From an uncultured Candidatus Moduliflexus sp. (GTDB lineage Bacteria; Moduliflexota; Moduliflexia; Moduliflexales; Moduliflexaceae), in assembly GCA_964602655.1 (NCBI GenBank), contig CAZRSF010000007.1, forward strand, positions 49,708 to 113,707: DNA of 64,000 nucleotides, given 5' to 3'. The notes beneath the pieces are model-generated. The model worked only from the letters and a program-made list of their open reading frames with translations, did not search any database and was not told the DNA's origin. The position numbers and the translations under genes were made by a program. Below, one piece after another: positions 2,033-19,411 of the stretch. Every line of letters begins with the position of its first letter. Positions within the stretch are counted from its first letter, which is position 1.

Positions 2033-3199
2033 TTACTGCGCGGCCAATTCGATTTTGTTGCCCGTCATGCCGGTGACATCGAACATCAGGCCGTTGAAAT
2101 CCTGCGCGGTCAATTCATCCGCCAGCGTCTCGGTCGTGCCCTGAATTTCGACATCGAGCACGGCGGTTTTTTGTTGAAAACTGCGCTGATTCACCGTCTT
2201 GACGCCGCGAATTTTCGTGGCGAGAATCTCTTTGATCTGCTTGAGTTGCGCAAACGTGACGTTCGACACGACGAGTTGCACGGTCGTGGCTGTTTGCACA
2301 TCCTGCCGCCATTGCTCGAGGATGTTGGGAATCAGCGTCTCCGCTAATTTGGCGCTCGCTTTTTCGATAGCCGCCGTTCCGCCGGTCAAGTCGTCAATAT
2401 GCGCGTTTTTCGCCTGCTCCGCCGCCGAGGCAATCACCGCCGCCGTATCCGCCCGCACGGCTCTGGCGGTCACAAGCGCCTGATACGATTTCATCTCGCT
2501 CTTGAGAATCTTTGCTCCGGCGCTGGCCGAGGCTTTCACCGTAATAACCACGTCCGCGGCGAATTGCTGGCAAATCGCGGCGGAGGCGGCGACGTCTCCC
2601 TCTGTCGCTTTAACCGCTAATTCACGGTTCACGTTTTGCGCGACAGTCATGGCGTCCACAACCTCGAACCCTTTATTGACAAATGCCTGCTGCAATGTGA
2701 CTTCCGCCTGCGACATGTCCGCCGACGCCACGCCAGCAGTTTTCAGGCCGACAAGCTCTTCCGAGACAAGAAACATCATGCGCGGATTTCCTTTTTGCTG
2801 AATCACATGCCGGATCGCCTGCACATCGGCGTCTAACGCGCCCATGCCGATGACAGCGCGAATTTTGACGCGATATTCCTTGTCGTCATGGCGGTCGTTA
2901 AGGATGTCATACGAGGTGATATAGCCTGCTGATTGGGTGAGGATGCGATCTGAGACGATTTCGTAATTCTGCACGACCGATTCGGAGGACATCAGGACGC
3001 CGACCGCCTGTTCGACAGCCTTGCGCTGCGCGTCAACAATCGCGTTATCGCGCGCCGTCGCCGTGTCATTTTGCAGGATGCGAGCCACGCCTTCGGCTTC
3101 GACCCTTTGCTGCGCATCTTCTCCGTAGAGCGCGATTGGCGTTAACATCGAGAGAAGAAGAGACGCGATCAAAAAGAGTCTGCATGATATTGTCATCAT
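2033..3199 (-). CDS. secreted protein with an LPP20/FlgT_N-like N-terminal domain (function unknown)
   Basis: The ORF was trimmed to MMTISCRLFLIASLLLSMLTPIALYG, which is a signal peptide. The AEGVA...ARDNAIVDAQRKAVEQAVGV pattern resembles LPP20/FlgT-type lipoprotein domains. This family assignment is tentative. Confidence 0.5.
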   Translation of the reverse strand: MMTISCRLFLIASLLLSMLTPIALYGEDAQQRVEAEGVARILQNDTATARDNAIVDAQRKAVEQAVGVLMSSESVVQNYEIVSDRILTQSAGYITSYDILNDRHDDKEYRVKIRAVIGMGALDADVQAIRHVIQQKGNPRMMFLVSEELVGLKTAGVASADMSQAEVTLQQAFVNKGFEVVDAMTVAQNVNRELAVKATEGDVAASAAICQQFAADVVITVKASASAGAKILKSEMKSYQALVTARAVRADTAAVIASAAEQAKNAHIDDLTGGTAAIEKASAKLAETLIPNILEQWRQDVQTATTVQLVVSNVTFAQLKQIKEILATKIRGVKTVNQRSFQQKTAVLDVEIQGTTETLADELTAQDFNGLMFDVTGMTGNKIELAAQ

Positions 3200-3378
3200 A
3201 TTCGTTGTTCGCGTCAGGCGCGCCGCGCGCGTCGTCTCACATGCGCGTTGCTCCTGAAACGAAGAGATTCTCCCGAATGAGGAAAACATGAGGGAAAAAC
3301 ATCGAACACGCTGCTCAATCCGCTGAAAAACCCGGAGGAGACACCTCTCCGTGTCTCACTCCGACTTGGCTGCCAGAC

Positions 3379-4229: not shown

Positions 4230-5288
4230 ATGAATGAACAGACGCTTGATTTTTTGAAACAGTTGCTCGATACGCCGAGTCCGTCCGGCGATGAAGCGGC
4301 GATCAGCCGCATCTGGCGTAAAGAAGCCGAAACCTTTGCCGATGACACGCAGGCGGACGTGCGCGGGAATTCCTTCGCAACGCTGCGCGGCGGAGCGCCG
4401 AAAGTGCTGCTGGCCGGGCATATTGACGAAATCGGCCTGATGGTCAGTTATATTGATGACGACGGCTTTCTCTCGTTTTCCGGCGTCGGCGGCTGGGATT
4501 CGCAAACGCTTGTCGGGCAGCGGGTGCGGCTTTTAGGGAAAAACGGCGAAGTCTCCGGCGTGGTGGGCAAAAAGCCGATTCATTTGATGGAAGACGATGA
4601 ACGCAAAAAAGTCTCGCAAATCAAAGACCTCTGGCTCGATCTCGGCGTCACGAACCGCAAAGAGGCCGAAGAGCTTGTCCGCATCGGCACGGTCGGCGTG
4701 ATTGAAGCGGACGTCAAAGAATATGCCAACGGACGCATCGTGTCGCGTGGCTTAGACGACCGCATCGGCGCATTCGCCGTGTTGGAAGCGCTGCGGCTGT
4801 TGTCGCAAGAGCGTCCGGCAGCGACGGTGACGGCGGTCGCGACCTGTCAGGAAGAAATCACGATGGCCGGAGCGCAGACCAGCGCGTTCAGCGTCGCCCC
4901 GCAGGTCGGCATCGCGGTGGATGTGACCTTTACGACCGATCACCCCAATTCCGATAAAAAACAAAACGGCGATGTGAAGCTCGGCGGCGGCCCGGTACTG
5001 TCGCGCGGCGCGGCCAACAGTCCGGTGATCTTCGACATGCTGGTCGCGATTGCGGAACGGGAACAGATTCCGTATAGCGTGCAGATTACGCCGCGTCGCA
5101 CCGGCACGGACGCCGACATGATCCATGTCTCGCGCGGCGGCGTCGCGACCGCCGTGATCTCGATTCCCTGCCGTTATCTGCATTCTCCGAACGAAATGAT
5201 CGCGTTGTCCGATGTGGAACAGACGGCCAAATTGATCGCCGCCTTCGTGCGTTCGCTGTCGGCAGAGGCCGATTTCATCCCGCGCTGA
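4230..5288 (+). CDS. M42 family metallopeptidase
   Basis: Motifs GHIDEIGLMV, LDDRIGAF and CQEEITMAGA. The start was moved to the ATG at 4230, which follows an AAGGTGGA RBS. Confidence 0.8.
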   Translation: MNEQTLDFLKQLLDTPSPSGDEAAISRIWRKEAETFADDTQADVRGNSFATLRGGAPKVLLAGHIDEIGLMVSYIDDDGFLSFSGVGGWDSQTLVGQRVRLLGKNGEVSGVVGKKPIHLMEDDERKKVSQIKDLWLDLGVTNRKEAEELVRIGTVGVIEADVKEYANGRIVSRGLDDRIGAFAVLEALRLLSQERPAATVTAVATCQEEITMAGAQTSAFSVAPQVGIAVDVTFTTDHPNSDKKQNGDVKLGGGPVLSRGAANSPVIFDMLVAIAEREQIPYSVQITPRRTGTDADMIHVSRGGVATAVISIPCRYLHSPNEMIALSDVEQTAKLIAAFVRSLSAEADFIPR

Positions 5289-5335
5289 AAAACGGAATTC
5301 TCTTAACCGATGTATCACGCATGGAGGAAAATCGT

Positions 5336-5875
5336 ATGGCACAATATAAAGCATTTGCCCAGTATGTCGAAGTCAGCGGACAATCCGCGCAGGCCGTCAT
5401 CGAGGCGATGGGCTTGTTCAAACGCTGGGCGGTGGAAGCGCTTGCCAGGCACGGCATGTCTGAATTAAAAGCCGATCAATGGTATCCGCAGCAGAATTAT
5501 TTGGATTTTTATCGAGAGATTGCCGAACATGTCGGTTTGAAAACGCTGAAAACCATCGGCAAAGAAGTGCCGAGAAAAGCCTTCTGGCCGCCGGAGATTG
5601 ACACGCTTGACAAAGCCCTCGCTTCGATTGACGCGGCGTATCACATGAATCATCGTGGCGGCGAGATCGGCTCGTACCGTTATGAAAAGACGGGTGAGCG
5701 CTCCGGCAAAATGATCTGCCACACGCCCTATCCCTGCCCGTTCGATCATGGGGTGATCGAAGGTGTCGCGCAGCGATTTGCGATTTCCACCGCGCGCCTG
5801 AAAGTCACCCATGACGACACGCAATCCTGTCGTCTGAATGGGGCAGATCGTTGCACATACCTGATTTCGTGGTAG
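5336..5875 (+). CDS. hypothetical protein
   Basis: Start chosen after a GGAGGA RBS. No motif I can name with confidence. Cys/His-rich C-terminal part (CHTPYPCPFDHG). Confidence 0.5.
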   Translation: MAQYKAFAQYVEVSGQSAQAVIEAMGLFKRWAVEALARHGMSELKADQWYPQQNYLDFYREIAEHVGLKTLKTIGKEVPRKAFWPPEIDTLDKALASIDAAYHMNHRGGEIGSYRYEKTGERSGKMICHTPYPCPFDHGVIEGVAQRFAISTARLKVTHDDTQSCRLNGADRCTYLISW

Positions 5876-11856: not shown

Positions 11857-11903
11857 GGAGTGCCAACGCTTGCTTTGGCGGCCAAAGCAAGCGTTGGCAC
11901 TCC
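11857..11903. repeat. perfect 23+1+23 palindrome, GGAGTGCCAA(A/C)GCTTGCTTTGGC family
   Basis: ggagtgccaacgcttgctttggc g gccaaagcaagcgttggcactcc. It lies between the RACE-like gene stop and the kdsA start and probably also acts as a terminator. Confidence 0.8.
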
Positions 11904-11919
11904 ATCATTGATTTTGAAA

Positions 11920-13746
11920 TTATCCGGGAAAGCGCATCTGTTCGGCGAACATCGTCTGGAACCGCGTATCGTTCGTCAAGGCGAGATGTTCGGTTCGCCG
12001 GGCGATCACATCGGCTTCATCTTTGGCTGCACGGGAAAGCAAAGCCAGTTGCGCCCCTAAACCGGCGGCGTTCCCGACTGACCGAATCCGTTCGCGGGGC
12101 ACATCAGGAATCAGGCCGATCCGCGTGGCGCTGTCAATATCAATATAATTGCCGAACGCGCCCGCTAACAAGATTTCCGCGATGTCGTCCTGCTCGATTC
12201 CCATGCGCTGCATCAGCATCGCGATGCCCGTCGCAATCGCGCCTTTGGCAAGTTGCAATTCGCGAACGTCCTGCTGTGTAATAACAATCGGCTCGCCGGA
12301 TTCGGTCTGATGGGCGTCCATCAATACGAACGAACGCTTGCCGTCGCCAACTCGCAGCCGCGTCCGCAACGCGAACGGCACGCCCTTTTTCTCCGCATCT
12401 TCCGGCGTCAACAGGCGTCCGCTGCTATTGATCAGCCCGGCATCCAACATCTGCGCAATCGCGTCAACAAGGCCAGAGCCGCAAATTCCCTGCGCCGGAC
12501 ATTCGCCGAGCACATGACACTGCACGTCGCCGTCAATTGCCACGCGGTCTATCGCGCCAGCCGCGCCGCGCATCCCATGCGTGATCTGCGCTCCTTCGAA
12601 GGCCGTGCCAGCCGCCGCAGAACAGGCGAGCAAGCTCTCTTTCGAGCCAAGCACGATTTCTCCGTTCGTGCCGATGTCAATGGCTAATGTGATGTGATCG
12701 TTCGCATGCAGCGCCGTCGCCAACACCACGCCGACCGTATCAGCGCCGACGAATCCGGCAATCAGCGGCAGCATCACCACCCGCGCCTGCGGAAAAATAT
12801 GCAGCCCAAACTCTTTCGCCGTTAAGACGATCTGGTCGCGAATCGCCGGAAGATACGGCGCTCTGCCTAAATGCACCGGCGAGATATGCAGCAGCAGATG
12901 ATGCATGACGGTATTGCCGACGATAGTGACTTCATAAATCTGCTGCGCGTCAATCCCGGCCTGCTCGCAGACCTCTTCGATAATCGTATTCAGCGTTTTC
13001 AGAATGTGTTCATGAAGTTTCTGCAAACTGGCGCGATCTTGCTGCGCGAAGGTAATGCGCGACATCAGATCGCCGCCATAGACGGTCTGAGCGTTCAAGG
13101 CCGACGCCACCGCGATTTCCTGGCCGGTATGCAGATTGAGCAAATACCCCACGACTGTCGTCGTGCCGACATCAAACGCCAGCCCGTACATCTGTTCGCA
13201 TGTATAGCCCGGTTCGATGCCGATCACGGTATTTTTCCAGCAGACGACCGTCATTTCGCGACGATGCTCGAATAGCACGGATGGCAGATGCCGCAATGCC
13301 GCAAGATCAATGTCCGCTGCCGCGAGATGTTCGCGCACATCCTCGAAATCAGAACTTTGATGTTCTTCAATTCTCTGCGGCAGAATGAGAAACTGCTTGC
13401 TGACATCAGGCGCTAAAACCACTTCTTCGCGTTCGGTATGCGAGAGGATGCGGTGCAATTGCTCAGAAATCGGCGGAATGACGCGCACCACGCCGTCAGT
13501 GAGCGCTCTGGTTTTGCAGGCAAGACGATACCTCTGCCGCAAGCGTTTTTCTCCCAGCACGCGGAAATCTTCGTCGGTCGGCGGCGTAAACTCGCCGCGA
13601 ATCAGTTGAATGCGGCAACTGTTGCAGCGGCCTTTGCCGCCGCAGGTCGCGACAATCTCCACGCCGCCTTGATGAGCGCATTCTAACACCGTTTGCGTCG
13701 GCTGAATCTCAATCGTTTTTTCTTCGGGCTGAAAGGTGATGTTCAT
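11920..13746 (-). CDS. ASKHA-fold corrinoid reductive activase (RACE/AcsV-like) with N-terminal 2Fe-2S ferredoxin domain
   Basis: The N-terminus [13 protein letters not shown]...LACKT is a plant-type ferredoxin. The rest fits a DUF4445/ASKHA ATPase architecture ([17 protein letters not shown]). Confidence 0.75.
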
Positions 13747-13769
13747 CGCAGATTTGGGAATGAGACGTT

Positions 13770-13865
13770 CCAGGGGTTGAAACCCCAGTCTTTATTCCGT
13801 TGCCGCTTCGCGGCAAGCCTCGCCCTGAAAGGGCGTTGGCATAAAGACAGGGGTTCCAACCCCTG
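13770..13865. repeat. 96-bp nested-palindrome element (core CCGTTGCCGCTTCGCGGCA..CGCCCTGAAAGGGCG)
   Basis: A second copy with the same architecture lies at 38544..38641. Confidence 0.75.
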
Positions 13866-13879
13866 AGAAATTCGCCGGG

Positions 13880-14761
13880 TTATGCTCCTTTGACCATCGT
13901 GGCGATGGCTCGAAGGTAGTCGGGATTCGTGCCGCAGCAGCCGCCGATAATGCGCACATCAAGATCAAGCAGCGGTTTCATCAGATCAGCCATCTCTGAC
14001 GGTGTCATGGTATAGACATTTTTGCCATCGCGCAGTTCAGGAAGCCCGGCGTTCGGCTGCGCGATCAGGTAGCCATTCGTCACGGAGCGCATCGCCTGAA
14101 GCACGCCGACGGTCAGTTCCGGTCCCGCGCCGCAATTCGTGCCGACAACATCCGCGCCGGCCTGCTGCAATGCTTCGACCGCCTGTTCCGGCGATGTGCC
14201 CATCATGGTGCGGTAGCCTTTCTTTTTTTGCTCGAAGGTCATCGTCGCCACCACTGGCAGCGAGGTATTTTCTTTGACCGCTTTCACCGCAATCACCGTT
14301 TCTTCCAGGCTGATCATGGTTTCCACGAAGGCTGCATCCACGTCGCCGGCTTGCAACGCGAGCGCCTGGGCTTTGAACGCCTGATATGCGTCGTCTTCGG
14401 CTAATGCGCCATACGGTTTGAGAAGTTGTCCGATTGGTCCAATCGATCCGGCGACAAAACGTTGCTCGCCAGCGGCTTTGCGGGCGATTTCAGCGCCTTT
14501 GCGATTCCATTCCGCCATCTTATCGGCAACATGATAATCATTGAGTTTGATGGACGTTCCGCCGAACGTGTTCGTTTCCACCATATCGCATCCGGCGTCG
14601 AAATACGCCTGATGAATCGCCTGCACGTCGTTCGGGTGCGACACGTTCCATTCTTCGGGGCACGCGCCTTGCGGCAGCCCTCTGGCAAATAACATCGTGC
14701 CCATTGCGCCGTCCGATACGAGGCGGCGTTTTGCTAATTCCGCTAAAAAATCTCGCGCCAT
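13880..14761 (-). CDS. homocysteine S-methyltransferase domain protein (MetH N-terminal-module-like)
   Basis: 293 aa. Hcy-binding-domain pattern with the C-terminal zinc site GGCCGTNP and GTNCG. Confidence 0.8.
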   Translation of the reverse strand: MARDFLAELAKRRLVSDGAMGTMLFARGLPQGACPEEWNVSHPNDVQAIHQAYFDAGCDMVETNTFGGTSIKLNDYHVADKMAEWNRKGAEIARKAAGEQRFVAGSIGPIGQLLKPYGALAEDDAYQAFKAQALALQAGDVDAAFVETMISLEETVIAVKAVKENTSLPVVATMTFEQKKKGYRTMMGTSPEQAVEALQQAGADVVGTNCGAGPELTVGVLQAMRSVTNGYLIAQPNAGLPELRDGKNVYTMTPSEMADLMKPLLDLDVRIIGGCCGTNPDYLRAIATMVKGA

Positions 14762-14767
14762 TTAACG

Positions 14768-14866
14768 AATAGAACACTGATTGGACTGATAGAACTGATT
14801 TTCATTGATTTTTTATTTTAAATCATCAGTGTTGATCTGTTTTATCAGTCCAATCAGTGTTCTATT
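14768..14866. repeat. 99-bp MITE-like element with perfect 24-bp terminal inverted repeats (AATAGAACACTGATTGGACTGATA)
   Basis: The arms at 14768..14791 and 14843..14866 are exact reverse complements. A solo arm lies at 28943..28964. Confidence 0.8.
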
Positions 14867-15437
14867 TTTTTTCCAAATTCACTTTGCCGATTTCCATATA
14901 TTCCGAGCCGGTAGATTTCAATTCGCTGCGAATCAGATAGAGCGCATCTACTGAAGTGACGCCGACCCAGATATTGACAATGCCTTCGATTGCCCGGAAG
15001 AGAGTGCTTTTATTTTTCTGTGATCGCACCCGTCCGAGCGTCAGATGCGGCTGAAATCGCCCGCTTTCCCCCTGAAATCCCAATGCTTCAAGACGCGGCG
15101 ACAGGTCAGCTTCCAATGTTTTCAAACTCCCGCTTTCATCGTCGGTGATGCCGATCCAAATCACGCGGGGGAAGCTCATGTTCGGAAACGCGCCCGCGTA
15201 GCCGATTTGCATCGAAAACGGGGATACTGTCTTCGCGCTTACAGTCATGGCGTCTAAAATTGCGGGGATTTGCGCTTCCTGAATATCCCCTAAGAATTTC
15301 AGGGTCAGATGAATGTTGTCCGGCTTTACCCAAGAGATTTGCGCATCCGCTTGTTTTAATTTCTCCTGAATTCCCGCCAGCTTTTCCTGGATTTCCTGCG
15401 AAATCTTGATGGCAATAAATGCTCGAATTCCGTCCAT
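14862..15437 (-). CDS. thpR: RNA 2',3'-cyclic phosphodiesterase (2H family, ThpR/LigT)
   Basis: Two HxTx motifs (HLTLKF and HLTLGR). Start trimmed to MDGIRAFIAI. Confidence 0.8.
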   Translation of the reverse strand: MDGIRAFIAIKISQEIQEKLAGIQEKLKQADAQISWVKPDNIHLTLKFLGDIQEAQIPAILDAMTVSAKTVSPFSMQIGYAGAFPNMSFPRVIWIGITDDESGSLKTLEADLSPRLEALGFQGESGRFQPHLTLGRVRSQKNKSTLFRAIEGIVNIWVGVTSVDALYLIRSELKSTGSEYMEIGKVNLEKK

Positions 15438-15505
15438 AATTTTTTCGTGTATCGCCGCGACTTCAGAGCGTCCTCCATCCTGACATCGCGCGACAGCGTC
15501 CACGT

Positions 15506-16753
15506 TTATTTTTCGCGTAACAGTTCGCCGCGCAGCATATCTAACGCCGTTTGCGCGGTTCTGGTCTTGATCTCAAGGCGATCCCCTGAAAATTGGCATT
15601 TCCGCCAGTGCGTACCGCCTTGTTCGGAAGAAACAGCAATAAAGACCAATCCCACCGGCTTATTCGGCGTCGCGCCGCCCGGCCCCGCGATGCCCGTCAC
15701 CGCGACGCCATAGGTGGTCTGCGACAGCCAGCGAATGCCTTCCGCCATTGCAACGGCTGTTTCGGCACTGACCGCGCCATGCTGCTCGATGATATTCGGA
15801 GACACGTCCAATAACGACATTTTCGCATCATTGCTATACGCCACAATTCCACGTTCCATATACATCGAACTGCCTGGAACATTTGTCAATCTGTGCGCAA
15901 TCAGGCCGCCGGTGCAGGATTCCGCCACTGCGACGGTCTGTCTGCGGTCGGCTAACAGTCTGCCGACAACTTCTTCCAGTGTTTCAGCGCCGACGCCGTA
16001 AACATACCGTTCCAATTTTTTGATAATCTGCTCGTTCAATGAGCGCAAACGACTTTCAACGTCGGTCTGAATTTCCCCTTTGACAGTCAAAATGATTGAG
16101 ATTTCCTCACCATCTTCGACGTAATTCAGCAATTGCTGACCGCCTTCCCAGTCAATGCCTTTCAATGATTCTTTGATTTTCGACAATGGCAATCCGCAGG
16201 TTTTGAATATTATGCCGTTGACCGTGCCGAATCGAAATGTTTTGGGGTCAAGGCGCGGCAAAATGCGCTGTTTGACAATCTGCTCGATTTCGTCAGGTTG
16301 CCCCGGCAGCAAGACCACGCTGTTTTGTTCATGCGTAAACAAAAACGCCGGCATTCGGCCTTTTTCATTGTCCAACATTTCTGCTTCCGTTGGGACTAAC
16401 GCCTGTTTTTCCGCTGTCGGCGGCATGGTATCTCCGCGAGCTTCATATTCGGCTTTGATTGCGTCCAACAATTTATAGTTCAGGATCAGGCGCTTTTTCA
16501 GTACGCGCGTCAGCAATTTTTTGGCGGTGTCATACTCGCCGGACATAACTTTTGCCACGATAAAGACCAGGCTCGACCGTCCGATAGCCTGACGCAGCAC
16601 GTCTTCCATCCGATTTTCCTGTCCGCTGACGAATGAGACGTAATCCACTTCGATTCCGGCGTCTAACAATTGGCGAGAGATGACCGCTACGCTGTTATTC
16701 CGAGCGTCTTGAATAATGAATTCGCTTCCGACTGAGATGATTTCGACTGGCAC
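15506..16753 (-). CDS. cinA: CinA family protein (MoCF-like N domain plus nicotinamide-nucleotide amidohydrolase PncC domain)
   Basis: C-terminal VAVAESCTGGLIAHRLTNVPGSS and GVAVTGIAGPGG motifs. Confidence 0.85.
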   Translation of the reverse strand: MPVEIISVGSEFIIQDARNNSVAVISRQLLDAGIEVDYVSFVSGQENRMEDVLRQAIGRSSLVFIVAKVMSGEYDTAKKLLTRVLKKRLILNYKLLDAIKAEYEARGDTMPPTAEKQALVPTEAEMLDNEKGRMPAFLFTHEQNSVVLLPGQPDEIEQIVKQRILPRLDPKTFRFGTVNGIIFKTCGLPLSKIKESLKGIDWEGGQQLLNYVEDGEEISIILTVKGEIQTDVESRLRSLNEQIIKKLERYVYGVGAETLEEVVGRLLADRRQTVAVAESCTGGLIAHRLTNVPGSSMYMERGIVAYSNDAKMSLLDVSPNIIEQHGAVSAETAVAMAEGIRWLSQTTYGVAVTGIAGPGGATPNKPVGLVFIAVSSEQGGTHWRKCQFSGDRLEIKTRTAQTALDMLRGELLREK

Positions 16754-16811
16754 GTATTTTCTCCGTTTTTTAAAAGCTGTCAGACACTTTCAAAGTGACT
16801 GACAGCTAATT

Positions 16812-17348
16812 TTACGCAAATCGTTCGATCAGGAATTTCGCCGCTTGCAGGAGGATATTGCCGTACACGCCAGCCAGCGCGTCGTCAATCATGACGCCGA
16901 AACCTTTCAGATTCGGATTTTCATCAAGGCTGCGAATCGGGTATGGTTTGAGAATGTCAAAAAATCGGAAGACAAAAAACCCGGCGATAATCCATTGCCA
17001 CTTGAACGGCTGCCACGCAAACGGCAAAAACGCCATCGTAATGAGGTAGCCGACGATTTCATCAATCACGATAATGCCATGGTCTTGTTCCTGTGACGCT
17101 TCTTCGATACGGTTCGCCCCTTGAATGCCGAACAAAAACAATACGAGCGCGATCGCGCCATACGGCAGCCATTGCATCCATCCCGCCGGAAGGAATGCGC
17201 CAAGTTTCATCAGGCCGAGATAGAGCGGAATGCCAACTAACGTGCCGAACGTGCCGGACGCAATCGGCGCGAAGCCGGAGAACAATCCGGTCGTAAGCGC
17301 TAACTGCCCCCAACCGACCTTTTTTGCAAATTTTTGAAGTCCTGCCAT
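16812..17348 (-). CDS. pgpA: phosphatidylglycerophosphatase A
   Basis: FGTLVGIPLY, VIDEIVGY and FRFFDILKPYPI motifs in a 178-aa membrane protein. Confidence 0.85.
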   Translation of the reverse strand: MAGLQKFAKKVGWGQLALTTGLFSGFAPIASGTFGTLVGIPLYLGLMKLGAFLPAGWMQWLPYGAIALVLFLFGIQGANRIEEASQEQDHGIIVIDEIVGYLITMAFLPFAWQPFKWQWIIAGFFVFRFFDILKPYPIRSLDENPNLKGFGVMIDDALAGVYGNILLQAAKFLIERFA

Positions 17349-17599
17349 ATCTATTTTTCAACGTCCGGTCTCTTGAAAGCCGCAGCAAAAATCGTACAGC
17401 GGTTTCCGCGTCGGGACGCCTTTTTATAAATTATGATTACATGAATGACTATGTTTGCGTCTTCATCGTATATCTGCAAAGGCGAGCTTCTCTGTCAACA
17501 AATATATGAGGAAATCTCCGAATTGCAGAAAAAAAGTTGTGCCGGCACATTTTTCTTGACGAAATTCCGGTGAGTTGTTTTTCCAGTATTTCAATAGAT

Positions 17600-17921
17600 G
17601 GGTCGTTAGCTCAGTTGGTAGAGCAGCTGACTCTTGGTAAGGGAGCCTCATACAGTAATGTATGAGTGAAAATTCGACTATATGCTAGGACGTCCTGAGA
17701 GCCTGAACTACTTCGTAAGAAGTAAAAATGTTCAGGATTGGATAATTAGCAGGCAACCCTCAAAAAATTTTGAGGAAGCCCTCAGAGGCCATACGTCGAA
17801 CATCCGGCAGGTAAGGCTGAGGATGATGAAATGGTCCAGACCGCAACGTCTGAGTGATGGTTAGCGAAAGCTAATGCGGTAGGTAATCAGCGGGTCAGAG
17901 GTTCGAGCCCTCTACGGCCTA
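17600..17921 (+). tRNA. tRNA-Lys(CUU), interrupted in the anticodon loop by a 249-nt intron. No CCA is encoded.
   Basis: Exons 17600..17634 and 17884..17921 join into a 73-nt cloverleaf very similar to bacterial tRNA-Lys. The anticodon loop is CTCTTAA. Confidence 0.75.
17635..17883 (+). ncRNA. candidate group I (IC3-like) self-splicing intron
   Basis: It follows an exon U and ends in G. GGGAG at 17641..17645 can pair with the exon end CUCU through a terminal U.G pair. It has a P2-like hairpin (17647..17666), a possible P4 pairing (17673..17678 with 17795..17800) and a GAAA-tetraloop hairpin (17861..17874). I did not derive the full fold. Confidence 0.65.
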
Positions 17922-17948
17922 TTTTCCCATCATAATAAAGTTTTCAGA

Positions 17949-18153
17949 TTATTCATACCAATCTTTCGGAATCAATTTTTTTCCTTTTCTCCATTCTTCC
18001 ATAACTCCCCTGAAAATCTTTTATCTTCGAATTGGCATGGTCGGTGATGATGACTTGAAGGTTTGGCGAGAGGTCTTTTACTGTGTCAAAAATCAGTCGA
18101 TACATGTTATATACAGCCTGTTCATCACTCGTGAGTTTGCAGATGACAGACAA
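17949..18153 (-). pseudogene. 3' remnant of a DUF3732-type (ABC-3C SMC-like ATPase) gene, frameshifted
   Basis: One frame reads NLQVIITDHA...DFQ. A shifted frame reads VMEEWRKGKKLIPKDWYE-stop. Together these match the characteristic C-terminus of DUF3732 proteins as I remember it. The N-terminal ~90% is absent. Confidence 0.5.
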
Positions 18154-18253
18154 AAGGAACAGGTCGCTTTTGTTCCAAAGAAAAACCTTGAGGAATCTGC
18201 CTTTTCGCAGGTTATTCTAATGCGTCATGAAATATGATGGGGGACGAATAACA

Positions 18254-18712
18254 ATGCTACACGATCCGAATCAAAAAGGGATTTTGGGTGAAATAGCAGT
18301 GATCAAGAATCTTTGCGCGCAGGGATATGATGTATTTCAAGCGGTCAGCAACAGTTCACGGGTTGATCTGATTGCACTGCGTGACAACATTCCGATCAAA
18401 ATCCAGGTGAAGAGTACTTATTCGAAGAATGGAATCGTTACGGCATATACCAGGAAAACATGTCTCAATCCTGTGTATAATTACTCCTATTCTACTGATG
18501 ATTTTGATGTTTTGGCGATATATGTCATTGACAAAGATGTAGTGTGTTATATCGCTTCGCACGAGATTCTTGCAAACAGAACGATGGTGAAGTTGAGATT
18601 CGAAGAAGCAAAGAATGGTCAGCAAAAAAGAATTCGTTATGTTTCTGATTATTCTGATTTTGAGAATGCTCTTACGCATCGTATGCCAGATATTCAGCAG
18701 ATTCAGAGATAA
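18254..18712 (+). CDS. PD-(D/E)xK endonuclease, I-Ssp6803I-like (PDDEXK_5-type), free-standing
   Basis: 152 aa. GILGEIAVIKNLCAQGYDVF...RVDLIAL...IKIQVKST gives a D...(Q)xK core with spacing and size like the cyanobacterial tRNA-intron homing endonuclease family. GGGGGA RBS. Confidence 0.6.
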   Translation: MLHDPNQKGILGEIAVIKNLCAQGYDVFQAVSNSSRVDLIALRDNIPIKIQVKSTYSKNGIVTAYTRKTCLNPVYNYSYSTDDFDVLAIYVIDKDVVCYIASHEILANRTMVKLRFEEAKNGQQKRIRYVSDYSDFENALTHRMPDIQQIQR

Positions 18713-19078
18713 AAAAAAGAACCAAATAGAAATTCTTAAAACATATAATTGGCATTGGGGTGTCGAGACAAGAATCTATATGCCTCACCGCGCGAGATGA
18801 GCCTGGAATTGCTTGTGGCAAGCGAGGACGTGGGTTTGGTGTGGGACAGCATCTTTCTGTATGAAGACGAACTTGACGCCGTACCCCCGCGTAACGAAGA
18901 AGTGGATGTAGCAGAATTCTTCGCGATAGATTAATCGTATCGTCGTTGTCCTTCCCATCCAAGGCAACGACTTTGACCTGGGCTACCTTTCAATAAACAT
19001 GAAGAGACACATTTGACAATCAATATTGCATCCATAATCTTCGATGTCTGTTCAGTCCACAAAGTTGACGATCTCTAT

Positions 19079-19252
19079 TAGACATCTTTCCTAAATAATT
19101 CCCATATTTTCGTCAGGCGAATAGGGGAATTTACATGGGATGGTTCAAAAAAATGGCTCTGAAGTCAAATATGAGCGTTTCTGTTTCAACACGCGAATGT
19201 CGCACTTTTGAGTTCTCCCTGCCTGAAAGAATTTATTTAGGAAAGATGTCTA
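19079..19252 (+). mobile_element. 174-bp MITE, copy 1 (20-bp TIR TAGACATCTTTCCTAAATAA)
   Basis: Base-for-base identical, in reverse complement, to 62472..62645. TA lies at both ends. Confidence 0.85.
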
Positions 19253-19322
19253 TTAAAATTCCCACCCAATCTACCTGCCTGCTCTATAGATTCGAATAAC
19301 AGGTAAAATTCATAAAAAATAC

Positions 19323-19377
19323 TTGACAGAGAAACATGTAATCTTTTATTTAAACGTTTACGCAAACGATTAAATAA
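19323..19377 (+). promoter_or_regulatory. candidate sigma70-type promoter (TTGACA-18-TATTTA) overlapped by a LacI/PurR-type AAACGTTT palindrome
   Basis: TTGACA at 19323..19328 and TATTTA at 19347..19352. A perfect TAAACGTTTA at 19351..19360 sits inside a 32-bp palindrome (19346..19377, 14 of 16 pairs). It lies 35 bp upstream of the LacI-family gene. Confidence 0.45.
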
Positions 19378-19411
19378 TAATCATTCAATCCTCTGAAGAT
19401 TTTCTTGTATC

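Follow-up and report, generated by a model that had tools for sequence, protein, structure and literature searches.

The window analyzed here, 64,000 nt of contig CAZRSF010000007.1 from an uncultured Candidatus Moduliflexus sp., contains a tRNA-Lys(CUU) gene at positions 17600 to 17921. The gene is split into two exons by 249 nt (17635-17883) that follow U17634 and end with G17883, and a gene for a protein of the I-Ssp6803I family of homing endonucleases begins 305 nt downstream of the tRNA. The coordinates of all features are collected in Table 1. The interrupting sequence has the complete anatomy of a group I intron, which is conserved among its relatives and covaries with them.

Spliced by hand, 17600-17634 and 17884-17921 yield a 73-nt cloverleaf that ARAGORN identified as tRNA-Lys(ctt). 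This product is identical at 69 of 73 positions (94.5%) to the uninterrupted tRNA-Lys(CTT) at positions 13-85 of metagenome contig L145, which itself scores 66.3 bits on RF00005. The exons remain a perfect cloverleaf, the T-stem changes relative to L145 being compensated. The 7-nt mature anticodon loop CUCU/UAA, with U33, A37 and the anticodon CUU, and the discriminator A73 are those of a bacterial tRNA-Lys(CUU); CCA is not encoded in the 3′ exon. An earlier reading of this DNA from its letters alone (the sequence-only reading) had joined the same two pieces into a tRNA-Lys(CUU), and both this proposal and the sequence it quoted for 17600-17921 were borne out. No match to the exon-gap-exon pattern appeared in 100 shuffles of the window. 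In default mode ARAGORN reported no tRNAs over the 64-kb window; standard annotation would therefore overlook the interrupted gene. The G1·U72 wobble atop the acceptor stem and the absence of an encoded CCA are common to Moduliflexus-like tRNA-Lys(CUU) genes (window, L108, L124, L142, L143, L145 and L152); other lineages (e.g. L031) have G1-C72 and encode CCA.

A permissive scan of 17500-18020 (521 nt) with Rfam family RF00028 matched 17624-17853 to the model from end to end (1-253) with 48.1 bits (E 3e-11). A structure with helices P1 to P9 was drawn for the intron, in which P7 forms a pseudoknot with P3 and the 5′ splice site is marked by the U17634·G17642 wobble. The ViennaRNA centroid, computed without guidance, recovered P1, P2, P4-P6a, P7, P8 and P9-P9b, its P7 helix being the one drawn. 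The fold of the intron is more stable than that of shuffled sequences (z = -4.51).

The drawn helices were evaluated in alignment A2, which comprises 12 complete introns of the same ribozyme lineage as that of the window (type A, see below); in control drawings the pairing partners were slid by 1-3 columns, and 500 shuffles were made. Drawn pairs hold in 92.9% of the cells of the alignment versus 33-41% after sliding, and changes on both sides were seen for 38 of 69 pairs versus 8-19 in the slid controls. None of the 500 shuffles reached the observed values. Compensatory changes occur in P2, P3, P5a, P7, P8, P9 and P9b, and the helices P3 to P8 are 89-100% paired in the 12 sequences. The pairing of the exon end with GGAG in P1, with U·G at the splice site, and the terminal G of the intron were present in all 30 introns examined for them, and the intron-side extension of P1 covaries. 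The pattern shuffles, the fold z-score and the helix covariation together exclude chance.

These results also settle the helices picked out by the sequence-only reading. Its pairing of GGGAG (17641-17645) with the exon end CUCU is P1, to which intron U1 has to be added; its CTCATAC/GTATGAG hairpin is present as P2, and its TTAGC-GAAA-GCTAA hairpin just before the 3′ splice site as P9b. The pairing of TTCGAC with GTCGAA stands as well (98.6% of cells paired), but the label P4 given to it does not: both the Rfam alignment and the drawing identify it as P3. The invariant nucleotides of J4/5, J8/7 and P7 are retained in the window intron, and neither CCUGAGAGC nor GAUUGG varies among the 12 type-A introns of the alignment. 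P7 with its bulged A17786 is presumed to be the guanosine-binding helix. The invariant CCUGAG...AUUGG around P5 resembles the 11-nt tetraloop receptor and could dock the GAAA loop L9b.

Table 1. Features of the interrupted tRNA-Lys(CUU) locus in window coordinates
Feature	Position	Strand	Description and evidence
5′ exon, tRNA nt 1-35	17600..17634	+	Acceptor 5′ strand, D arm, anticodon stem 5′ strand, C32 U33 C34 U35; ARAGORN, identity to L145
Group I intron, type A lineage	17635..17883	+	249 nt, no open reading frame; RF00028, P1-P9 drawing, covariation, z = -4.5
P1	17631-35 / 17641-45	+	Exon CUCU + intron U1 with internal guide GGGAG; loop GGUAA
P2	17647-54 / 17659-66	+	8 bp, GUAA (GNRA) loop; 8/8 pairs changed on both sides, 93.8% of cells paired
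P3	17673-78 (TTCGAC) / 17795-800 (GTCGAA)	+	5/6 pairs compensatory, 98.6% of cells paired; Rfam alignment
P4	17683-88 (TGCTAG) / 17746-51 (TTAGCA)	+	Drawing, Rfam alignment; P4-P6 domain 17683..17780
P5	17692-95 / 17740-43	+	Drawing, covariation
P5a (P5 extension)	17702-08 / 17730-36	+	Accompanied by A-rich bulge GUAAAAAU
P5b (P5 extension)	17711-14 / 17719-22	+	Drawing
P6	17752-54 / 17778-80	+	Drawing, covariation
P6a	17758-64 / 17769-75	+	Loop is the endonuclease reading frame site in relatives
P7	G17785, GGCCA 17787-91 / UGGUCC 17832-37	+	A17786 bulged; 100% of cells paired, 2 pairs compensatory
P8 hairpin	17801..17825 (17801-05 / 17821-25)	+	CAUCC/GGAUG plus CAG/CUG; 100% of cells paired, 5 pairs compensatory
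J8/7 AUGAAA + P7 3′ strand UGGUCC	17826..17837	+	Rfam alignment, drawing, covariation
P9	17841-44 / 17876-79	+	CCGC/GCGG; three-way P9 domain 17841..17879
P9a	17847-50 / 17856-59	+	Drawing, covariation
P9b	17860-65 / 17870-75	+	GAAA loop, nearly invariant in type-A alignment
Omega-G	17883	+	Last intron nt; G in 30/30 related introns
3′ exon, tRNA nt 36-73	17884..17921	+	U36 A37 A38, anticodon stem 3′ strand, variable loop, T arm, acceptor 3′ strand, discriminator A73
Intron-less tRNA-Lys(CUU) anticodon region			Sequence GCAGCTGACTCTTAATCAGCGGG
Low-GC stretch	17922..19400	.	39% vs 52% in the window; between tRNA and LacI gene, holds endonuclease gene and short gene remnants
PD-(D/E)XK homing endonuclease family gene (I-Ssp6803I family)	18227..18712	+	PF11645, PDB 2OST, homologues
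Ribozyme-derived 3′ end of the endonuclease reading frame	18658..18704	+	Resembles P6a′-P6′-J6/7-P7-P3′

The splice sites were placed at 17634|17635 and 17883|17884 because the intron must follow U, end in G and leave a 7-nt loop. The insertion point lies between nt 35 and 36, and U36 of the anticodon is supplied by the 3′ exon. This choice, which was also that of the sequence-only reading, is fixed by relatives and above all by L068. The first intron base of L068 is C; U36 therefore comes from the 3′ exon and the 5′ site lies after U35. Several other relatives pair intron U1 with A.

Run in intron mode (-i), ARAGORN reported Thr(cgt) and placed a 249-nt intron at 35-36 (in the numbering of the program), as would result if both splice sites lay 1 nt upstream (after C34 and after G17882) and the product were tRNA-Thr(CGU). 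One class with C at -1 is reported in the catalogue of Williams (doi 10.1101/2020.01.27.920355). Nevertheless, the probability of these sites is negligible: C at -1 would break the U·G wobble kept in 30 of 30 relatives, and the tRNA body is of the Lys type, with 94.5% identity to a bona fide uninterrupted tRNA-Lys(CTT). Moreover, the base before omega-G varies, and the same shift would give non-Thr anticodons in L022, L026, L045, L064, L068 and L123. The ARAGORN intron-mode boundaries were dropped because C at -1 and the Lys-type body contradict them.

Logan contig L001 (run SRR8925824) is identical to window 11874-17632 and ends 2 nt before the 5′ splice site. An intron presence/absence polymorphism was considered as an explanation and dropped, as the break precedes the point where intron-bearing and intron-less alleles diverge. 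It is more likely that the end of L001 marks a branch in the de Bruijn graph with another tRNA-Lys sharing k-mers of the D-arm and anticodon stem.

One genome per species was scanned for tRNA-Lys(CUU) halves lying 235-265 nt apart. At least 120 loci were found, about 100 of them tandem tRNA-Lys(CTT) genes spaced by approximately 250 nt, which were discarded on inspection; L003 (Thaumarchaeota) was also dropped, its insert not being group I. At least 16 among the matches listed are true interrupted tRNA-Lys(CUU) genes, all with the insertion at 35/36. The 35/36 introns sort into three ribozyme lineages (alignment A1). Type A includes those of the window, of Bacterium UASB14 and of an acidobacterial metagenome-assembled genome (MAG). 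Type B is classical IC3-like and occurs in alphaproteobacterial MAGs (L045, L064, L088), and type C, which has additional helices between P7 and P3′, in MAGs of gut Bacilli/Tenericutes (L013, L022, L023, L026, L068, L079, L083, L094, L102, L111 and L112).

The type-A core pattern matched 20 metagenome contigs, and introns of this type occupy tRNA-Lys(CUU) at 35/36 and tRNA-Lys(UUU) at 34/35. Overall, about 30 related tRNA-Lys introns beyond the published catalogue were found. The RF00028 match, the P1-P9 structure, the covariation and these homologues confirm the central claim of the sequence-only reading, namely that the tRNA-Lys(CUU) gene is split at 35/36 by a 249-nt group I intron. Three structurally different ribozyme lineages (in Moduliflexota/Acidobacteriota, Alphaproteobacteria and gut Bacilli) thus hold position 35/36 of tRNA-Lys(CUU), and type A is present at two positions in two lysine isoacceptors. 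Introns have colonised this one tRNA site repeatedly, which makes it a clear example from nature.

The type-A P3-P5 core was also seen outside tRNA genes, in metagenome contigs L129 and L132 and in the IMG/VR viral contig L153 (approximately 5110-5570). At these loci it is followed by an open reading frame (ORF) with a LAGLIDADG-like motif ('FIEGLMDSEGYV') and apparently lies within a phage structural (capsid-like) gene. The occurrence of the core in a seemingly phage gene means that the ribozyme lineage is not confined to tRNA-Lys. In L135 (1-350) a type-A intron precedes a normal tRNA-Lys 3′ exon and its 5′ flank is unrecognisable as a tRNA half; this may be a truncated or rearranged copy. 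Approximately 550 nt downstream of the interrupted tRNA-Lys of the alphaproteobacterial MAG locus L045, positions 2756-2843 match RF02967 (DUF3800-VII RNA) with 49.7 bits, above gathering.

For the host genome the analysis covered the 64-kb window. The genes upstream of the tRNA are bacterial (RACo, homocysteine methyltransferase, LigT, CinA and PgpA), and those downstream encode LacI and a sugar ABC transporter. In UASB14 the same upstream block, with 85-91% protein identity, stands before the same interrupted tRNA (scaffold DF820455, L108). In the 250-kb metagenome contig L140 the block has approximately 60% identity and the intron is present. Persistence of the intron at the same syntenic gene, between flanking proteins that are ~60-90% identical, means that the ribozyme has been maintained over a long divergence, and the intron has passed vertically down the Moduliflexus-like lineage. 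UASB14 has been named Candidatus Moduliflexus flocculans, and the window accordingly belongs to a relative within Moduliflexota (KSB3). The UASB14 genome is ~98% complete; among its tRNAs Table S6 gives Lys(ttt) only and no Lys(ctt) (PMC4312070). The interrupted gene is therefore the only known gene for the CUU isoacceptor in UASB14, overlooked by annotation.

A gene of the LigT/ThpR 2′,5′-RNA-ligase family (14862-15503, - strand) is situated upstream of the tRNA at a distance of three genes. It belongs to a PgpA-CinA-LigT block that UASB14 and L140 also have. A role of LigT in splicing of the tRNA was considered and its presence judged coincidental, group I splicing being ligase-free and the gene part of the conserved block.

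Taken together, the sequence evidence makes it very probable that the locus is a functional tRNA-Lys(CUU) gene, the precursor of which contains a self-splicing group I intron between U35 and U36. By analogy with known group I introns, the exon end CUCU would pair with the guide GGAG to form P1, with the U35·G wobble at the splice site, and the P3-P9 core would fold with its P3/P7 pseudoknot and a P4-P6 domain carrying the lineage-specific P5 extension. Free guanosine bound in P7 would then attack after U17634. G17883 would subsequently take the same pocket, and the freed 3′-OH of U35 would attack after G17883. Joining of the exons, which the 5-bp anticodon stem may help to keep together, would produce mature tRNA-Lys(CUU).

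Several points weigh against this interpretation. The consecutive pairs U17634·G17642 and U17635·G17641 blur the 5′ site when the window sequence is taken alone, and P10 is weak, with at best one U·G pair in the hand-drawn structure. At the gathering threshold (50 bits) Rfam gave no match in the whole window, the intron being 1.9 bits short of it. Lysine codons in nearby genes are AAG in 40 cases versus AAA in 146, so that AAG is the minor codon. tRNA-Lys(UUU) can usually decode AAG as well, and the cell might therefore tolerate a dead tRNA-Lys(CUU) gene.

The last point leads to the possibility of a disrupted pseudo-tRNA, with a decayed group I insert that does not splice and with AAG decoding left to tRNA-Lys(UUU). 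We consider this very unlikely, although an RF00028 score just below gathering, the loss of the endonuclease ORF from the intron and the local rarity of AAG would all agree with it. No core helix is broken, and where the intron departs from its relatives the changes compensate rather than disrupt; the invariant J4/5, J8/7 and P7 nucleotides are kept, the exons form a perfect cloverleaf in which the T-stem differences from L145 are compensated, and intron and gene have been retained at the same locus while flanking proteins diverged to ~60-90% identity. The long vertical retention, the intactness of the exons and the compensatory evolution speak for a gene that is spliced and works.

As to the RF00028 score, type-A relatives range from 46.9 to 57.6 bits, and the close relatives that reach the gathering score have 50.1-57.6 bits. 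Of the classical IC3-like type B introns in tRNA-Lys, L088 and L064 score only 35.7-37.4 bits. At E<=0.001 the model found nothing in L013, the single Bacilli-type locus examined with it, or in L045, and one ORF-bearing type-A intron went undetected. According to the Williams preprint, the Rfam seed for RF00028 holds no bacterial sequence (doi 10.1101/2020.01.27.920355). The 48.1 bits of the window intron are thus ordinary for true members, and the 1.9-bit shortfall reflects the model and not the sequence. The sequence-only reading had named an RF00028 match and a drawable P3-P7 core as its checks: a full-length match was obtained, although under gathering, and the core could be drawn.

A further alternative is that the group I fold is real and that splicing in vivo depends on a protein cofactor or chaperone rather than being autonomous. 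Many group I introns require protein cofactors, and the extra P5 domain of the window intron hints at special folding demands. However, the small bacterial tRNA group I introns examined so far (Anabaena tRNA-Leu, Azoarcus tRNA-Ile) self-splice in vitro. The GNRA loops L2 GUAA and L9b GAAA and the receptor-like CCUGAG/AUUGG, if they dock as predicted, would stabilise such RNAs without protein. A need for a cofactor is accordingly quite unlikely, and autonomous self-splicing of the tRNA-Lys(CUU) precursor is the preferred explanation.

The sequence-only reading knew of no described tRNA-Lys(CUU) host and considered the insertion point unusual; the novelty suggested in this way has to be revised. 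In the Williams preprint approximately 80,000 genomes were scanned and the number of tRNA/site classes was raised from the four classical ones (Leu.3Ug, Arg.5Ug, fMet.2Ug and Ile2.5Ug) to 21; Lys.4Ug, Lys.3Ug and Lys.2Ug are already catalogued, and the seed alignment gpI.sto includes Mpe6.Lys.4Ug, Mle24.Lys.3Ug and Dba165.Lys.2Ug (doi 10.1101/2020.01.27.920355). The catalogue is computational and reports neither splicing experiments nor an analysis of endonucleases (doi 10.1101/2020.01.27.920355). By its definition the window intron is Lys.4Ug (tRNA-Lys host, insertion after the fourth nucleotide of the anticodon loop, with -1 being U and omega G), sharing host isotype and insertion point with that class. 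It is thus a further member of a catalogued class whose host and site are known computationally, from a preprint only. tRNA-Lys is absent from a 2014 review of group I introns in bacteria, and our literature search found no splicing experiment on any tRNA-Lys intron.

Compared with the gpI.sto seeds, the core of the window intron is like that of Mle24.Lys.3Ug (J3/4 UAUA, UGCUAGGAC..CCUGAGAGC and GAUUGG.UAAU.AGCAGG), a seed that in our own reading of both sequences is apparently identical to locus L127. It is unlike the Lys.4Ug seed Mpe6, which starts with CUUUU and has a classical IC3 core; this start would imply the UUU isoacceptor. The window intron thus differs from the Lys.4Ug seed in combining the CUU isoacceptor and the 35/36 site with a 'Lys.3Ug-type' core.

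With the classical IC3 tRNA introns it shares the location in the anticodon loop, the size of ~200-250 nt, a P1 that uses anticodon-loop nucleotides, a P2 capped by a GNRA loop, a P9 domain whose final GAAA hairpin immediately precedes omega-G, and an anticodon stem that brings the exons together. Its 35/36 site differs from those in cyanobacterial and plastid tRNA-Leu(UAA) (34/35) and in Azoarcus tRNA-Ile(CAU) and Agrobacterium tRNA-Arg(CCU) (36/37). J3/4-P4 is UAUA-UGCUAG versus AAAU-UCGGGG in the IC3 seeds of gpI.sto, and a P5a/P5b extension of ~45 nt with an A-rich bulge replaces the short L5. In this comparison with subgroup IC3, P2, the P9/P9b-GAAA layout and the size fit, whereas J3/4-P4 and the P5 extension differ. 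These findings leave the basic picture of group I introns unchanged. With such genes missed by default tRNA finders and, in the case of UASB14, absent from the published tRNA list, decoding capacity is under-called wherever such introns interrupt tRNA genes.

The downstream endonuclease gene encodes 161 amino acids (aa) from its first ATG, or 152 aa from the ATG at 18254 (database entry P0001). The product matches PF11645 with 73 bits (E 3e-20; cut-off 26.1) and PDB entry 2OST with E 0.004, the latter with only ~20 bits of direct similarity. We take 2OST to be I-Ssp6803I, the PD-(D/E)XK homing endonuclease of the Synechocystis tRNA-fMet intron. The E...D...QxK motif (E13, D38, Q51, K53) is invariant in 13 homologues. 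Bonocora and Shub in 2001 (cited in PMC3984707) and Zhao et al. in 2008 (cited in PMC3943268 and PMC3239194) are said to have dealt with this system, in which the tRNA-fMet group I intron of Synechocystis PCC 6803 reportedly encodes I-Ssp6803I. As in Synechocystis, a group I intron in a tRNA anticodon loop is tied to a PF11645 endonuclease, and in relatives L152, L137 and L146 the ORF is inside the intron. The window differs from Synechocystis in that its ORF is outside both the intron and the tRNA gene, and in the host tRNA and insertion site.

The intron-borne homologues point to the origin of the gene. The window endonuclease shares 49% identity (E 1e-47) with an ORF that L137 carries in the P6 region of its type-A intron in tRNA-Lys(CUU), and 66% with the corresponding ORF of contig L152, which has the same Moduliflexus-type tRNA-Lys(CUU) and the same intron; the L152 ORF sits in the P6a loop and reads through P7 to P9b. 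The last codons of the window ORF ('...DFENALTHRMPDIQ') are identical to window ribozyme 17767-17813 at about 28 of 47 positions (~60%, hand count on an alignment). Judged by these sequences, the nuclease gene descends from an intron-embedded ORF and now stands alone beside an ORF-less copy of the intron; the window intron no longer carries a homing endonuclease ORF in its P6a loop, having lost it.

Relatives form a series of decay from L152 (intact) through L143, L145 and L142/L144 to the window (most decayed). In L143 the ORF is followed by a nearly complete 3′ intron half and a 3′-exon fragment, in L145 by a P6′-P7-P3′ remnant and a 3′ exon copy, and in L142 and L144 by a P6′-P7 remnant only. 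Around the window endonuclease gene no second exon copies or ribozyme relics were found beyond the ORF's own 3′ codons. L142 and L143 have the layout of the window, with an interrupted tRNA and then a free-standing ORF. The graded relatives and the ribozyme-derived codons constitute an unusually readable record of a homing endonuclease gene leaving its intron.

It is possible, if rather unlikely, that the ORF-less intron and the downstream nuclease still act as a two-part mobile unit, with trans or 'collaborative' homing at the tRNA gene. In this model the nuclease, now outside the P6a loop from which it was expelled, would cleave tRNA-Lys(CUU) alleles that lack the intron, and repair would copy the protective intron and the nuclease gene together. 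Collaborative homing by an ORF-less intron and a neighbouring free-standing endonuclease is known in phages (PMC3984707; T4 mobE/I-TevIII, PMC2790892), and here the comparable arrangement recurs in contigs L142 and L143. Unlike the phage cases, the window unit lies in a tRNA gene of a bacterial chromosome, and its nuclease demonstrably comes from an intron-embedded ORF and is not an independent invader that converged on the site. Such a unit would have arisen through the break-up of a composite intron and not by convergence.

The 2-kb contig L145 contains, at 1-730, the uninterrupted tRNA-Lys(CTT), an intact-looking ORF at 232-681, the ribozyme relic and a second tRNA 3′ exon at 685-725. It represents either a real state of intron loss or rearrangement or an assembly chimera. 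Unless it is chimeric, an intact-looking ORF beside an intron-less tRNA-Lys(CTT) calls for caution in assuming that the intron-less gene is cut. In phage-like contigs L149 (207 kb) and L151 (129 kb), at approximately 1240-2010, a tRNA-Lys is split in its anticodon loop without a ribozyme: its 5′ half is followed by AAAA, an entire tRNA-Lys(UUU), a PF11645 gene (35-38% identical to that of the window) and the 3′ half. Here a replacement tRNA, not an intron, seems to accompany the nuclease. Under the model of a two-part unit, the layouts of L145 and of L149/L151, in which displaced tRNA fragments flank an intact tRNA-Lys and a nuclease gene, could be alternative outcomes of the activity of the same nuclease.

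In L126 (3209 nt) the endonuclease ORF is split over both contig ends (N-terminal part 2911-3207, C-terminal part 3-305), which suggests an artefact of assembly, circular or tandem. Two short reading frames were noted near the window endonuclease gene. The one at 17953-18153 (- strand) ends like an ATPase C-terminus ('QVIITDHA'), and approximately 17969-18040 is conserved at the nucleotide level in L142/L143. The other, at 18037-18237 (+ strand), resembles an ORF of 79 aa located ahead of the endonuclease gene of L144.

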